A DNA stretch of 64,000 nt, from contig PRDH01000003.1 in the NCBI GenBank assembly GCA_003345545.1, forward strand, positions 17,413 through 81,412. Reading direction: 5' to 3'. A model generated the notes under the pieces. The model had not been told where the DNA came from and searched no databases. It saw nothing but the letters and a program-made list of their open reading frames with translations. This stretch comes from Candidatus Thorarchaeota archaeon (GTDB lineage: Archaea; Asgardarchaeota; Thorarchaeia; Thorarchaeales; Thorarchaeaceae). Positions 14,565-20,968 of this stretch are shown here, piece by piece. Each line of letters opens with the position of its first letter. The first letter of the stretch is position 1. Position numbers and translations under genes: made by a program.

Positions 14565-15482
14565 GTGCCTAAGGCAATCTTCTCGATTTGGTGGGACGAC
14601 CGTCTTGGACCCATGGTTGGGCGTTCATACCCTGAGGCACCACCGCTTTCCAGTGAGGAGGCCGTCACAGTCTTTATGGGTCATGGAGCAAACATGGAAA
14701 TTCAGGTAGGATATTCCAAGATCCAGAGTGGCGTTGTGATATCATATATGAGACCACCAAACTGCATAGCCGTTCTCTTAGATGATGGAGAGAACAGCGC
14801 AACGATCGAGAGAAACATCTTGCGACTAGCGCCCACTATTGATTTCAATAGCGATACCTGGGACAGAGAACTCGAAAAGGCGTATCGTGGTCTTGAGGAT
14901 CTGATTACTGAAACCACTGGCGAGGAACTACTCCTGAATCCGAATGTGAAGCATCTCGTTGCAGACATGATGGATGGCCGACTTGCGTCAGTCACACCAA
15001 CACATGTACTGAAGGCAACAATCAGATATCCAGATGCACATGAGTATCTAGGCAACGACGATGAAGAAGTGTTGAGACTTCTCAGAGACCTCGAGGATGA
15101 GGAAGTGCTTGAGTCCCGTACGTATGGCCGAAGAGTTGAGTGTCGCCAGTGCGGCGATTCTGATTTGATGATTAGCCTTCTGTGTCCTTCATGCAACTCT
15201 GAGGACATACACAAGGTCTACACAGTGTATTGCCCTAAGTGCGGCAATCAATTCCAGACATTGTTGGCCGATGATCTTGCAGTAGTCAAATGCTTGAGCT
15301 GCAAACAACCAGTGAAGGTCAGCCAGCTCTCTGTCATCGATGTCGAGCCGCTATGCAACAAATGTGGTACTGCATCCAATGACCCAAAGATAGTGTTCAA
15401 GTGTGGGACATGCGGAAAGCAGTTGAAAGGGGCCGATCTACTATCGGGCACTGGATTGGCGTACTATTTCAGGAATGTGTAG
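14565..15482 (+). CDS. uDENN/longin-like domain fused to wHTH and multi-CxxC Zn-ribbon (TackOD1-like) domain
   Basis: N-terminus IFSIWWDDRLGP..SYP. C-terminal IRYP..LRDLEDEEVLE followed by six CxxC pairs (CRQC, CPSC, CPKC, CLSC, CNKC, CGTC). Confidence 0.65.
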   Translation: MPKAIFSIWWDDRLGPMVGRSYPEAPPLSSEEAVTVFMGHGANMEIQVGYSKIQSGVVISYMRPPNCIAVLLDDGENSATIERNILRLAPTIDFNSDTWDRELEKAYRGLEDLITETTGEELLLNPNVKHLVADMMDGRLASVTPTHVLKATIRYPDAHEYLGNDDEEVLRLLRDLEDEEVLESRTYGRRVECRQCGDSDLMISLLCPSCNSEDIHKVYTVYCPKCGNQFQTLLADDLAVVKCLSCKQPVKVSQLSVIDVEPLCNKCGTASNDPKIVFKCGTCGKQLKGADLLSGTGLAYYFRNV

Positions 15483-15505: not shown

Positions 15506-17113
15506 CTAGCTATCTTCCTTCTTCTTACCTTTCTTTATTGTCTTCTTCACCACAGTTCTAGCATCTTTCACTATCTTCTCTGCGCGTCCGTCACTGAGTC
15601 CATCGATCTTCTGTGCAAGCCTTTGCGGTGTTTCACCAGCGAGTTGGACGGCAGATTCGTAACCAGCCGCCTTAAGCTTCTTCTCCAGAGCCTCGCCGAT
15701 TCCAGGAATTCCTTGAAGGGACATATTTGACTTGGAATCTTCACCGAGTATTTCACTCATATCACTATCACTCAATTCAGTGCCCGCATCGATTATGTCG
15801 ATCTGACTCTTAATTGAATCAAAGTCATGTGATCCAACAAAGGCGTCAACTGTCTTTTTCACCTGACGGTCATCAAAGTCAAAGGCCAATTCCTCAATCT
15901 CTATCTCCCGTCCCAGAATCGCTGGAAGATGCCCCGTAAGGTACAGAGCTATAAGAGATGAGAATATGGCCACTTGTCCACCGAATACGGTCAGATAGCT
16001 AGGAATATGAAACTGTATCCCGAATACAAGGAGATTGAGATCAACAGCTAAAAACAGTAGCACATAGCCCAAGAAGAAGAACCAAATCAGGGATAGCCGA
16101 ATTCCCTTTGTTCGGACAGAACCAAGCTCTGGCCAAATCAGACACACACATAGCCCAAGAAGGTAGCCCTCGAAGAACCTTTCAGAACTGAGTAGGATCT
16201 GAAGCAATGAGAACAAGTCCGTATCCTGAAAGAAACCAGTGTATAGAGTGGAACCAAAAATCGTCAATAATCCCATCATCAAAAGAGCAAAACTGAAAGC
16301 GGGCTTTCTACCCTTAGTGTCAGCAATGACACCTGCAACTACTATGCCAAGGATGAGAATAAGCGTTTCGAGTAAGGGCAAGTTAACATATTGACTCAAT
16401 GATTCAAAAGAGGAGTCTCCTGCAAAATGCTCCTGAAAGCTGAGTTTCATCACCATGTACCAAAGTATGTATGAAGCCATGATCAATACAGTAGGGGTGA
16501 AATATGTGAGAACACTCCCAGATGCTGCGAGGCGCGCCCTAGGTTGTCGCCAAGGCTTCATGCCAATTGAAACGATCAGAAGCACAATCGCGATAACTGC
16601 TGGCAGGGTGAGATAGGAAGAGCCCAGAAGGATGCTCATTTGCTCAAATAATGCATAGAGAGTGACGAGGATTATTGTGACGCACAGGAATACTGCTACC
16701 GTGCGACCCCGATACTTAACAATGATGCCTTGATTGACACGAACAGTCCAAAGAACCAAGAGAGAGGCCAATCCAGCAAATGAAGATAGTACTAGGAGCA
16801 ACTCCACAGTTTCCAGTTGCTGCAAGGTGAGTGGAGCAAGTCTAAGCAATGCAACTATTGGCGTGACTACCGCGGCAAGGACTACCAAGAAGTCAATTCT
16901 TCGTATTCGATCTGCAAGAATACCCGTCAATGGAAGTGCAAAGACAGCAGCGAGTGCACCGAGCCCTAGTAGTCCATAGTGTTCCAGGAGTGTCAGACCA
17001 AAGAGTGTACCTGATATCAGTTTCAGTATGATATAGATATTCAGTGCTACAGGACCAGCAAACAGAATGAAGAGACTGGCAGTCTTTGTGGGGAACTCAC
17101 GATACTGAAGCAT
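15506..17113 (-). CDS. MFS-like polytopic membrane protein with C-terminal helix-hairpin-helix domain
   Basis: GILADRIRR and GVIADTKGRK MFS motif-A repeats. C-terminal LQGIPGIGEALEKKLKAAGY..IDGLSDGRAEKI resembles the RadA N-terminal HhH. Start is uncertain (17113 or 17164). Confidence 0.7.
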   Translation of the reverse strand: MLQYREFPTKTASLFILFAGPVALNIYIILKLISGTLFGLTLLEHYGLLGLGALAAVFALPLTGILADRIRRIDFLVVLAAVVTPIVALLRLAPLTLQQLETVELLLVLSSFAGLASLLVLWTVRVNQGIIVKYRGRTVAVFLCVTIILVTLYALFEQMSILLGSSYLTLPAVIAIVLLIVSIGMKPWRQPRARLAASGSVLTYFTPTVLIMASYILWYMVMKLSFQEHFAGDSSFESLSQYVNLPLLETLILILGIVVAGVIADTKGRKPAFSFALLMMGLLTIFGSTLYTGFFQDTDLFSLLQILLSSERFFEGYLLGLCVCLIWPELGSVRTKGIRLSLIWFFFLGYVLLFLAVDLNLLVFGIQFHIPSYLTVFGGQVAIFSSLIALYLTGHLPAILGREIEIEELAFDFDDRQVKKTVDAFVGSHDFDSIKSQIDIIDAGTELSDSDMSEILGEDSKSNMSLQGIPGIGEALEKKLKAAGYESAVQLAGETPQRLAQKIDGLSDGRAEKIVKDARTVVKKTIKKGKKKEDS

Positions 17114-17173
17114 ATATCTCTCTCCAAGGAATGAAATACCCTGAGACTGATGGGTTATGGACATTTCGACTTC

Positions 17174-17183: not shown

Positions 17184-17271
17184 CGAGAGCCTTTTCAATG
17201 TACCAGCAATGAACCTCAGCGATATCTTAATGTCCTCTCAGTTTTCCCTAAGATACACGGAGCGAGAAAGT

Positions 17272-18180
17272 TTGGTTGGAAAGCTTGGTGTAAACGAATT
17301 CATGGTCTTGACTACAGGAGGTACTCCGATTTTCCACTACTCTACAACAGACACTCCAAAGCTTGATCATCTCCTTTCGGGATTCATTAGTGCAATAACA
17401 AGCTTTGCAACTGAATTTGGCGAGCGATCCATTCAGAGCCTATCATTCGAAGGGTCACAACTTCTCTATGAGCAACACGATAATAACTACCTCTGCGTCT
17501 TCCTTGTAGAAACAGGTTCGTCAGAGAAGGTGCTTCGCGCAGTACTGCGCGAGCTGAGCAAGAAATTCATGTCGCGATATAGAGACGAATTGAAGATGGA
17601 TGTCCCAATTCTAGATGTCTTTATGGACTTCGAACAAGTGGTCAAGAGCGTCTTGTCTCACTATGAAGGAGTCCTCGCAGAAATATCAGGTTTCAGCAGC
17701 TTTTCAGTCCCTGAAATCAAGAAAGCCGATTTGGACATAGCAACCGAGTCAGAGGGTTTTCTGGACGAATTCCATCGTGACTTTGGTACCTCAGGCAATA
17801 GAGTTCTATCTGTAATCGATGGCAAGAAGACGCTATATGATATGAGCCGCGACCTCGGAATCACTCCAGTAGAAATCCGAGATGTGGTCGAATACTTGGC
17901 AATTAGAGGATTCCTAGGCATCTCAAGCCTCTGCCCGCTGATCAAAGGAAATGATGCGCGCTTTGAAGCCTATCTAGACATTGTTGGCCTTCCAAGCAAG
18001 GACTATCAGCTTCTTGAGAGAGCAAAGAATCTATGCAACGGGAAGAGGACACTTGTAGAAGTCAGTGAAAGACTCGGAGTCAATCCTGAGCGGCTCTACG
18101 ATGTTCTTGAAAAGATGGGAGAGGAAGTTGAATGGAGACTCGTTGAAGTCTCCACTTCTTTGCACACATTTTCACCCTAG
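17272..18180 (+). CDS. Longin domain + tandem winged-helix protein (NPRL2-like wHTH)
   Basis: FMVLTTGGTPIFHYS..LLSGFISAITSFATEF longin pattern. wHTH repeats IDGKKTLYDMS and CNGKRTLVEVS. The track's start at 17086 overlaps the divergent gene, so TTG 17272 is more plausible. Confidence 0.7.
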   Translation: MVGKLGVNEFMVLTTGGTPIFHYSTTDTPKLDHLLSGFISAITSFATEFGERSIQSLSFEGSQLLYEQHDNNYLCVFLVETGSSEKVLRAVLRELSKKFMSRYRDELKMDVPILDVFMDFEQVVKSVLSHYEGVLAEISGFSSFSVPEIKKADLDIATESEGFLDEFHRDFGTSGNRVLSVIDGKKTLYDMSRDLGITPVEIRDVVEYLAIRGFLGISSLCPLIKGNDARFEAYLDIVGLPSKDYQLLERAKNLCNGKRTLVEVSERLGVNPERLYDVLEKMGEEVEWRLVEVSTSLHTFSP

Positions 18181-18249
18181 TTCACTTTCTTCGAAGTGAT
18201 TAAGTAGGTCTTTGTCCACTGCGAACCACGATTCTAGGAGAATACTCCA

Positions 18250-19527
18250 TTGGTCAAAGAGATCATTGTGCTGCAAGAAGGAGGAATACTTCTCTTCCAC
18301 TATAGCATCGGTGGCACAAAGAAGCTAGATGAACTGGTCGCAGCATTCCTATCAGCAGTCGATTCGTTAGCGCAGCAAGTAGGGCGAGATAGAATCACAA
18401 CGATTTCGTTTGCTGCCAATAAGCTGGTTTGGGAAAAGAAAGGCAACCTGTTCTTCATCGCAATGATTTCTGAAGAGAGCACCAATGAGATATTCAGGAT
18501 CATATTAAGAGATCTCGCCGAGCAATTCGTGAGTATGTATTACGCGGATTTGATGAACGAGTTCTTTGACTTGGGGAGATTCAAGTCATTCACGGATGTT
18601 GTGGAAACAACACTCCACAAATTCGATGGTATCCCTGGATTAGCAAGGCGGTACAAGACAATCTTGCTACCATCTGAAGAGCTGAATATTCTGGCGAAAA
18701 AGCTGGTTGAAGTAGAAGTCAGTCGAGATGTCCTCAGAGGGTGTCTCATTACTTCTGATGGGTATATTGCCCTATCTCATCTTCGCGCCTATGAAATCGA
18801 GATTGTTCTGGATCTCATGCCCATTCTGCTTCGGGATGTTGAGATCAGGGAGCATGCAAGTCTGGAAAAACCAACAGCTCTTCTTCTCATCAGGACTCAT
18901 AACAAGGGCGTCGCGGCATTCATCGTAAGACTTGGATTATCTGAGGAGTCGTACTACGAACTAGTGACGCCATTCTTAGCCTATGCTTCGGAAGCTGACT
19001 TTGAAGGTGCGAGGAAACTTGAACCGGAGAAGACAGAGAGTCAGATCTCATTCTACAGTTTTGATAGAGTCAAGCCGATTGCCAGTATTGATGGCATTGA
19101 GCACGAGCTGAATTCACTGCTTAGCGCAGCCTCCGAGAACACTCGTTCAGGCGCAATCAAATTGAGAGAGGCCCTTCCAGAATCACCACTCGTGGCCGAG
19201 ATTCAGCAGATATTGGCCTTGCCTAAGAATCAATTAGACGAATTGCTCGCCAATCTAATAGCAAGAAACATGATCAGAATCATGAAAGTATTTCCAACTC
19301 TCGACGAGCGTGATGAGAGGTTTTCAATGTTTCTGGAGGTCATTGGAATTAAGAAGAAAGACTTTGATGTCGTCAACACTATCTGGAAGTACTGCGATGG
19401 TAGCCTTTCAATACAGGAAATATCAGAAAGAACAAGCATTCCTGCGCCTAGGATCATGGAAGTCCTGCGCGAACTAGGCAACAATGTTACTTGGTCTAAC
19501 GACCGGAGGTTAATTCATGTCAGGTAA
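18250..19527 (+). CDS. Longin + roadblock-like + tandem winged-helix protein, paralog of the upstream gene
   Basis: [28 protein letters not shown] (longin); [16 protein letters not shown] (roadblock/LC7-like); [14 protein letters not shown]..VTW (wHTH). SD AGGAG precedes TTG. Confidence 0.7.
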   Translation: [425 protein letters not shown]

Positions 19528-20272
19528 GATCATTTCAATACACAGTTTTCGTGGAGGAACAGGGAAATCGAACATTGCTGCAAATCTTGCAGCATATGCT
19601 GCGTTGCAGGGAAAAAAGGTAGCAGTCATGGATACTGACATGGCATCACCAGGTATTCATGTTATCTTTGGCCTAGGCCGAGAGAAATTGAAGTATACGC
19701 TCAACGACTATCTAAGGGGTTCATGTGATATCACTGATGCTTGTATCGATCTGACAAGTCGTTTAGATATCAAGGGGGGAGGAAAGCTCTTCCTTATTCC
19801 AAGCTCTATGACTGCCACTGATATCACTCGAATTCTGAGAGAAGGCTACGAGGTAGGAGATCTCAAGAAGGGCTTCACTGACGTGATTAAGGCAAAAGAT
19901 CTTGACTATCTCATTATTGACACGCACCCCGGGTTGGACAGAGAAACCCTACTATCAATGGCAACAGCACACTATCTTTTCGTTGTGGCAAGAATAGATG
20001 AACAGGACCTCCTGGGAACAGCCGCAACATTGAGCGTCGCAAGAAAACTCCAGGTTCCTGAGATTCGAATTATCATCAACAAGAAACCAGGTATCTACGA
20101 GGATAAGGCGATTACCTCTGAAGTTGAATCAAAATTCAAAGCCCGAGTCGCTACAATCATTCCGCTTCTTCCCCTGTTGATAGAAGTCGGTAGTCGCTTC
20201 GTGGTCATTTTGAGATATCCAGAAAACGAATTCGCAAAGAACATTGATGACATCTACAGAATGATTCTGTAG
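19517..20272 (+). CDS. MinD/ParA family ATPase
   Basis: SFRGGTGKSN deviant Walker A, VMDTDMASPG, YLIIDTHPG, IIINK. Overlaps the upstream gene by 11 nt. Confidence 0.9.
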   Translation: MSGKIISIHSFRGGTGKSNIAANLAAYAALQGKKVAVMDTDMASPGIHVIFGLGREKLKYTLNDYLRGSCDITDACIDLTSRLDIKGGGKLFLIPSSMTATDITRILREGYEVGDLKKGFTDVIKAKDLDYLIIDTHPGLDRETLLSMATAHYLFVVARIDEQDLLGTAATLSVARKLQVPEIRIIINKKPGIYEDKAITSEVESKFKARVATIIPLLPLLIEVGSRFVVILRYPENEFAKNIDDIYRMIL

Positions 20273-20393: not shown

Positions 20394-20503
20394 CGCAATC
20401 CGATGTAGCAGCAACATAATTAACTCTTACTCCAAGTCTACAGCTGTAGAACTTCTAATAGGTCTGTTCCAGTAGATGAAATAGAGCTTGGAGGATGAAT
20501 GTA

Positions 20504-20968
20504 ATGGTCATTGATGTGAAACTTGCTACTGCTCAAGACCGTTCTGCATTGGATCAGTTGTATGCACGGGAGGGACACAGCTTTCAGAAACTCGCAGCTC
20601 TAGCAGCATGTACTCCTGTGGGCGGGATTCTCGAAACGATATTTGTTGTGGCGTGTGCCAATGACATGGTCGTGGCAGCACTAAAACTCGATGTTGGGAA
20701 TGACCCCGAGTTGGGCAGGATTGGAGTCATACAGCATTTCGAGGTCGAGGATAATCTCGAAGACACTGACTTAGAATGGAAGATGCTCAACAAAGTAGTC
20801 GAGATTGCAGAGGATAAGAGGCTTCGAGCTCTTGACACACTCATTAACGAGTTTTGAAAAAAGACAATCAATCTCTATGCGCAACTTGGTTTTGAAGAGG
20901 AGCGAAAGGAAGTGTATCTTAGGAAGGATTTCAGGCCACGAGTATCCCAGCTTATCCCGAAACTATAG
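20504..20968 (+). pseudogene. GNAT acetyltransferase interrupted by in-frame TGA at 20855-20857
   Basis: The frame continues after TGA as KKTINLYAQLGFEEERKEVYLRKDF, the GNAT C-terminal LYxxxGF motif. SD GGAGG favours ATG 20504. Confidence 0.7.

Follow-up and report, generated by a model that had tools for sequence, protein, structure and literature searches.

An apparently vertically inherited Thorarchaeia locus linking longin-winged-helix proteins, distantly related to NPRL2, to a ParA/MinD-family ATPase gene

In the 64,000-nucleotide (nt) stretch of Candidatus Thorarchaeota archaeon DNA analysed here (assembly GCA_003345545.1, contig PRDH01000003.1, positions 17,413 to 81,412; this whole stretch is called the window, and positions are counted from its first letter), three genes follow one another on the plus strand and encode two longin proteins with tandem winged helices (wH), here named A and B, and a ParA/MinD-family ATPase. 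Gene A (17272-18180, +; 302 amino acids, aa) encodes a longin domain and two tandem wH units, and it appears to be a derived duplicate specific to Thorarchaeia, without a roadblock domain. Gene B (18250-19527, +; 425 aa) encodes a longin, a roadblock and two tandem wH units, a form that also occurs as a single gene in two further genome sets designated f2 and f14, the latter probably Hermodarchaeia, a name it bears by only one database label among inconsistent ones. The gene of the ATPase, which is of the ConB2 type (19517-20272, +; 251 aa), overlaps gene B. An earlier note, made by reading the letters of this DNA, had described two adjacent paralogs, each with a longin and tandem wHTH, the second with a stop overlapping a MinD-family gene; the three open reading frames (ORFs) were indeed found on the plus strand, the motifs it quoted are all present in the translations and the overlap was measured as 11 nt.

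The TTG start of gene A is backed by orthologues of ~300 aa, by an upstream GGAG and by a conserved BRE/TATA-like putative promoter box (B recognition element and TATA; 17219-17232, +), which lies about 55 nt before the end of the A start codon and at -54 to -61 across about 26 Thorarchaeales loci. Divergent from A is the gene of an MFS-like membrane protein with about 10 or more transmembrane segments and a C-terminal helix-hairpin-helix domain (15506-17113, -), whose likely start is the ATG at 17113 and whose longest ORF extends to 17164. This gene stands head-to-head with the block in the Thorarchaeales set (f1) and in f14, none was seen at the f2 locus, and its product is a candidate fourth member of the module. 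A conserved 13-nt element (17156-17168, -), mostly 37-48 nt upstream of the membrane-gene coding start and with its exact match unique in the genome, is most likely the promoter of the membrane gene. Judged by their letters and placement, both conserved intergenic elements are explained as ordinary promoters; for the 13-mer, a wHTH operator was weighed as well, but a divergent promoter is likelier. In the one RNA run with shared words no part of A or B is covered, and nothing about expression follows from it. Located 3' of the ATPase gene is a GNAT-like ORF (20495-20857, +) of 120 aa, compared with about 148 aa in most orthologues, and it is possibly frameshifted near 20850.

The two longin proteins are paralogous over both halves, with 32% identity in the longin (E 5e-23) and 25% in the C-terminal part (E 1e-13). 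AlphaFold2 models (mean predicted local distance difference test score, pLDDT, 83 for A and 79 for B) placed a longin at residues 7-138 of A, followed by two wH units, and a longin (2-125), a roadblock (142-248) and two wH units in B. The N-terminal longin fold is present in both proteins, the models matching longins at Z 14-15; for B, superposition on the VAMP7 longin gave Z 14.5 with a root-mean-square deviation (rmsd) of 2.2 over 113 aligned residues. The insert of B matched an Asgard roadblock and MglB (Z 11.2, rmsd 2.5-2.9, 104-112 aligned), bearing out the roadblock-like insert that had been reported in the second paralog. A Pfam Fuz_longin_1 match, below cut-off, was obtained in 44 of 55 A members and 64 of 75 B members. 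Almost every named homologue of A or B carries the label Candidatus Thorarchaeota, and an ESM Atlas search returned unnamed archaeal clusters only.

Tandem wH units could point to transcription control, with these units (mainly those of B) binding DNA, the ATPase serving as a co-regulator, and the longin and roadblock domains used for dimerisation or sensing. There is a parallel in FlhG/FleN, which acts as co-regulator of FleQ. Such a role would suit the Pfam TrmB match for B, which is above cut-off (E 9.7e-6), the conserved basic residues of its last wH (K369 in 80%, R401 in 77% and R407 in 83%) and the divergent gene layout with its conserved promoter-like elements. However, the wH units of A are acidic (mean net charge -4.7 and -3.3), as is its first putative recognition helix (mean -3.7), the intergenic elements are accounted for by two ordinary promoters, and in NPRL2/3, the closest relatives with solved structures, such domains make protein contacts (PMC8534245). 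We consider transcription control rather unlikely.

The ATPase motifs are intact (Walker A RGGTGKS, sensor DTDMASPG and Walker B IIDTHPG). Among 23 aligned sequences the RGGTGKS motif, with Arg where the signature Walker A Lys would stand, was invariant, and so was the PG after the sensor DxD (D39-T-D41..S44-P45-G46), the two features that mark the ConB2 assemblage (Li, Burroughs, Aravind; 10.64898/2026.10.19.760177), and by these motifs the ATPase is of the ConB2 type. It differs from the MinD of MinCDE: the chain ends with the last core helix, with no C-terminal amphipathic membrane-targeting helix, and its scores lie below the NCBIfam minD cut-offs (TIGR01969, 77 bits vs 202; TIGR01968, 53 vs 213). 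Close orthologues were found in 69 of 85 f1 genomes, the one f2 genome (1/1) and 17 of 19 f14 genomes, plus four Helarchaeales-type genomes. The gene is single-copy and the most conserved of its block, at 78% identity vs 40-58%. In the ATPase tree, whose root is provisional, the longin-linked ATPases form one clade (100/100), and adding the Helarchaeales ATPases gives an Asgard group (100/100) apart from the sampled cyanobacterial and other relatives.

Across 64 loci in 63 genomes, B and the ATPase gene overlapped in 31, lay 0-30 nt apart in 17 and 31-150 nt apart in 14, and were separated by an insert in 2, so that 62 of 64 loci, or 61 of 63 genomes, keep them 150 nt or less apart. Within f1 a whole block of about ten genes keeps its order, and adjacency there alone therefore says little. 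In f14, only the membrane gene, B and the ATPase gene are common to the Thorarchaeales block, and in f2 only B and the ATPase gene. Since f14 shares no other Thorarchaeales neighbour except the membrane gene, the link between B and the ATPase is not just block synteny. In genus g12, where B is missing, the ATPase gene comes directly behind A. The ranges of the B orthologue and of the ATPase match over f1, f2 and f14; the ATPase-linked wH tails form one group (87/87), and their branching is the same as in the ATPase tree, with f14 first and then f2/f1. As read from gene order and trees, the module looks vertically inherited and the gene link is old. The conserved coupling to a MinD/ParA gene, for which the earlier note had proposed a check of synteny across Asgard genomes, was found in 61 of 63 genomes and reaches into f14. 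The joint absence of A, B and the ATPase gene from G336, G370 and G335 was set aside as evidence of co-loss, the flanking TackOD1, membrane and 700-aa genes being gone there too, as fits an assembly gap.

These data also bear on whether there is a functional link at all, since the ATPase gene might merely be co-transcribed with longin proteins that act on a small GTPase in trans. The uninformative adjacency in the f1 block, the small GTPases encoded in the source genome (at least six) and the GTPases flanked by sister proteins, described below, would be in keeping with this. Nevertheless, the adjacency persists in f2 and f14 without the rest of the block and after the loss of B in g12, and we regard the absence of a link as quite improbable.

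The earlier note had likened A and B to NPRL2/NPRL3. In Foldseek searches the top 11 matches of the A model were all GATOR1/SEA chains (best E 5.6e-8, TM-score 0.23-0.32, the low scores probably reflecting differently oriented domains), and for the B model GATOR1 chains alternated with tri-longin guanine nucleotide exchange factors (Fuzzy-Inturned, Mon1-Ccz1). At the sequence level, phmmer searches with A or B directly against the PDB gave no significant match, and the B profile did not match NPRL2 in the PDB. The residue comparison with NPRL2 in the earlier note held in so far as both of its NPRL2 snippets are in the PDB sequence, but the first comparison pairs different repeats, and the direct A profile gave E 0.85 to NPRL2, which is not significant. 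A HMMER search of 1.84 billion proteins identified, as the nearest relatives outside A/B, Asgard proteins of 340-365 aa with a longin and three wH units. This sister family aligned end to end with A and B (hhalign 99.9%, E 1e-31 and 3e-34), and with its profiles human NPRL2 was the top PDB match (E 1e-6 and 4e-10). Compared with the three-wH form, the first wH is missing in A and replaced by the roadblock in B; aligned through the sister family, the first wH of A is the counterpart of the second wH unit of NPRL2. Taken from these profile comparisons, the homology of A/B to NPRL2 is real but indirect, distant and running through an Asgard intermediate family, and the NPRL2/NPRL3-like architecture seen in the earlier note is upheld in that form.

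The longin + multi-wH family spans 181 of 400 Asgard genomes (profile, E 1e-22 or better), with about eight longin + wH paralogues in the source genome. Pfam NPR2 (PF06218) had no match in the source genome and none above the curated cut-off in the 400 Asgard genomes, and Pfam HTH_NPRL3 picked in the source genome another paralogue (C24:8330, E 4.8e-4), not A or B. That contig holds a second tandem longin-wH pair (C24:7808-9537), facing a roadblock gene and a radical-SAM gene, and the layout of this pair is kept in three other Thorarchaeales genomes (L150, L157, L158). An Asgard family with a longin and an NPRL2-type C-terminal domain has been described in most Thor and a few Loki genomes (Liu et al., 10.1101/2020.10.19.343400). 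It shares its architecture type with A/B, its equivalence to them among the roughly eight paralogues is not established, and the text of that paper mentions a MinD/ParA link 0 times. A literature search combining Asgard with GATOR1 and MinD, or with NPRL2 and winged, returned 0 papers, subscription journals being mostly outside its coverage. Elsewhere in the window, a longin-TackOD1 fusion (14565-15482, +) keeps a GP motif (W-x4-GP) in all 26 loci printed. It is the sole such protein in the genome by motif pattern, has no conserved Arg finger, is syntenic with the cluster in Thorarchaeales, was not seen at the f14 or f2 loci, and is in keeping with what Liu et al. describe as NPRL2-like longin/two-component fusions.

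The resemblance to NPRL2-NPRL3 of GATOR1/SEACIT (Npr2-Npr3 in yeast) lies in the N-terminal longin, the tandem wH units and the presence of two paralogues. A true GATOR1-like obligate heterodimer with GTPase-activating protein (GAP) chemistry, ancestral to NPRL2-NPRL3 and serving nutrient signalling, would be in line with the Foldseek ranks of A, the transitive sequence homology and the A+B complex model. That model passed weakly, scoring 0.42 while the best control scored 0.00; its contacts agreed to at least 76%, partner pLDDT was at least 77, and the result names no interface. Calibration gave passes for 58 of the 80 solved pairs and for 2 of the 110 mismatched ones; at scores of 0.60 or under only 7 of the 80 solved pairs passed, and both false passes were also in that range. 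The structure prediction proposed in the earlier note thus gave a weak signal for the pair, and this score may be explained by likeness of the model to solved longin heterodimers.

The defining features of a longin GAP are its arginine finger and its GP motif (PMC12290439; PMC8534245). Among 55 A and 75 B sequences there was no conserved Arg in the strand 4-5 loop, the place of NPRL2 Arg78; this loop (A 69-73, B 63-66), located by model secondary structure and knowledge of NPRL2 rather than by superposition, is variable or K/G/D. In place of the GP motif before longin strand 2, A has G17-x-P19 and B has G12-x-P/L14 (GxP). The longins themselves are closer to VAMP7/Sec22 (Z 14-15) than to NPRL2 (Z 10.4, a loose 197-residue fit). 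NPRL2/3 have three wH units vs two in A/B, the first unit of NPRL2 lying in the DEPDC5-contact region, and the neighbouring partner there is a Rag GTPase, here the ParA ATPase gene. In the wH-tail tree, A, Thorarchaeales B and f2 B formed one group (84/83), with the lone B-like gene of f14 outside it. Because the tree sets that gene apart, the A/B duplication would have taken place within Thorarchaeia, independently of the split of NPRL2 from NPRL3, and there is moderate support, by sequence, for a split of A and B after their separation from f14.

The pairing of A and B was also found to vary. Only one B-like gene is present at the f2 and f14 loci, B was not found in nine genus-g12 genomes that have A, and in three genomes inserts of 2-3.6 kb separate A from B. 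Going by gene content, the A-B pairing is not obligate, and in some lineages one of the two genes is enough by itself. Genomes of genus g2 carry genes for PAS-domain and response-regulator proteins in the space between A and B or immediately upstream of B (L049:6908-10240, L051:9110-10588). Overall, with no conserved Arg, GxP for GP, Pfam NPR2 unmatched, the longins nearer VAMP7/Sec22, a duplication confined to Thorarchaeia and single-gene versions in existence, a GATOR1-type catalytic or obligate heterodimer is largely refuted at the sequence level; we hold such a complex to be very improbable, and the locus is no demonstration of a GATOR1 or TORC1 pathway in prokaryotes.

When neighbours were compared across about 40 sampled loci of the longin + multi-wH family, eleven genes lay beside, or one gene from, a Ras-family GTPase. 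These genes make up two clades, a Loki-type and a Hel-type one, so the adjacency counts as two events and not eleven. Among the rows outside A/B, the Hel-type GTPase-linked proteins had the highest combined longin + tail scores to the B profile. In a Hel-type run (L125:4030-6134, L128, L089), a longin + 3 wH gene is followed by the gene of a Ras-fold protein with a broken P-loop (a pseudo-GTPase) and, third, by that of an intact Rab-like GTPase. In a Loki-type genome the GTPase + longin-3wH pair is duplicated in tandem (L136:4037-7712), which suggests that the two form a unit. At L132:3334-3978 (G128), another longin-like gene with the GP motif has a Rab-like GTPase gene on one side and a longin + 3 wH gene on the other. 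ParA has been described as displacing MglA beside MglB (10.64898/2026.10.19.760177), and by analogy it is plausible that the ATPase took a GTPase's place.

The earlier note took the MinD coupling to be new. The coupling stands, but its novelty is reduced, since ParA-wHTH systems, mainly archaeal and consisting of a ConB2 ParA with one or more wHTH genes, have already been catalogued with profilin/longin-like fusion variants (10.64898/2026.10.19.760177), which may include the A/B locus. The present locus likewise has a ConB2 ParA gene, with the Arg-Walker-A and PG signatures, coupled to wHTH genes. The PwHTH1 protein of those systems is fast-evolving with a long N-terminal helix and fits the Helarchaeales partner better than A/B, whose tails come from the NPRL2-like family. 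In the Helarchaeales operon (L074, L077, L086, L162-L164), the ConB2 ParA gene lies with genes of a TPR protein, a 110-aa protein, an ADP-forming acyl-CoA ligase subunit and a 200-aa helix-wHTH protein; by its gene content this arrangement fits the preprint's basic ParA-wHTH form, and its conserved ligase gene is a hint of a role in metabolism rather than immunity. Descent of the A/B wH units from the helix-wHTH partner was considered and rejected, the match being weak (hhalign 67%, E 5e-5 to B; 0.3% to A). The same partner, taken as a stand-in for PwHTH1, gave hhalign 2% to the sister family and HMMER scores not above background. In the MglA-MglB and ParA variants, a roadblock-fold partner also sits next to a P-loop switch, but their ParAs belong to the PriB1 clade rather than ConB2, and the roadblock here is inside the longin-wH chain and missing where only A remains.

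Immune function of ParA-wHTH systems is a prediction of the same preprint (10.64898/2026.10.19.760177), in which Li, Burroughs and Aravind hypothesised that ParA-wHTH coats invading DNA, and defence against mobile elements was weighed as an explanation here too. The ATPase bears both ConB2 signatures, the preprint lists a wHTH fused to a profilin/longin-like domain, and bacterial relatives lie next to a ParE toxin gene at one locus. Two bacterial loci that were looked at are signalling neighbourhoods. In contrast to patchy, fast-evolving defence loci, the genes here occupy a fixed chromosomal place in a long conserved block, in single copy, in most f1 and f14 genomes and with a strongly conserved ATPase, invariant residues are present in the wH tails, and the tails match the Helarchaeales partner only weakly. 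The locus thus looks vertical rather than defensive, and a defence function appears improbable.

We instead favour, at a rough probability of 0.45, a reading that makes the longin-(roadblock)-wH proteins a dimeric adaptor or activator of an ATP-driven switch with a housekeeping role in signalling or positioning. The module would be a switch of the housekeeping type, passed down vertically in Thorarchaeia and probably in Hermodarchaeia. By analogy with ParA/MinD biochemistry, the ATPase would dimerise on ATP and need a partner for hydrolysis or localisation; gene coupling, together with the role of longin and roadblock domains as platforms, points to the longin-(roadblock)-wH proteins as that partner. 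The adaptor may ancestrally have been a B2 dimer and may now be A-B, or A2 where B was lost. Its binding to the ATPase would depend on nucleotide state and involve no arginine finger of the GATOR1 type; the wH units would be surfaces for protein contact, as they are in NPRL2/3, and the divergent membrane protein could supply the membrane anchor or input that the ATPase is without. Historically, one of the longin + multi-wH proteins, which form a broad family in Asgard archaea and elsewhere in it often flank Rab-like GTPases, may have become linked to a ParA; this ParA would then fill the role of the GTPase, while the Helarchaeales sister of this ParA would retain a small helix-wHTH partner. 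Any assignment to nutrient signalling or positioning is an inference.

Several observations weigh against this reading. Its functional steps all draw on gene neighbourhood and analogy; the wH units of B are near neutral, with some conserved basic residues, and compatible with DNA binding. Inserts of 3.3 and 1.2 kb separate B from the ATPase gene in G313 and G323, and in G317, outside the 63 genomes, the two genes are on different contigs with other DNA beside each. The GTPase-adjacent genes are limited to two clades, most other longin + multi-wH subfamilies are without an NTPase neighbour, and the wH-tail tree settles no GTPase-linked clade as sister of A/B; because this sister group is left open, replacement of a GTPase by ParA is not established. 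A broader and doubtful proposal is that the NPRL2-like scaffold is NTPase-agnostic, serving Rab-like GTPases in Loki- and Hel-type lineages and re-wired to a ParA ATPase in the ancestor of Thorarchaeia and Hermodarchaeia, with A/B activating or positioning the ATPase at the membrane protein.

Both halves of the locus, the NPRL2-like Asgard proteins and the ParA-wHTH systems, are already catalogued; what is added is the transitive link to NPRL2, a view of when the duplication arose and of its not being obligate, and a comparison that sets the locus against its GTPase-linked sister genes. Many Asgard longin and roadblock proteins are without a known partner, and this locus points to a specific, small, soluble candidate. 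This version behaves like a core, vertically inherited module, in contrast to the immune role predicted for ConB2 ParA-wHTH systems. With the link kept across two Asgard groups, three proteins are enough to probe NPRL2-like function in archaea. If the proposed re-wiring is true, the locus would provide the first demonstrated case of a longin platform in control of a SIMIBI ATPase and would offer a tractable model of NPRL2-like proteins before mTORC1.

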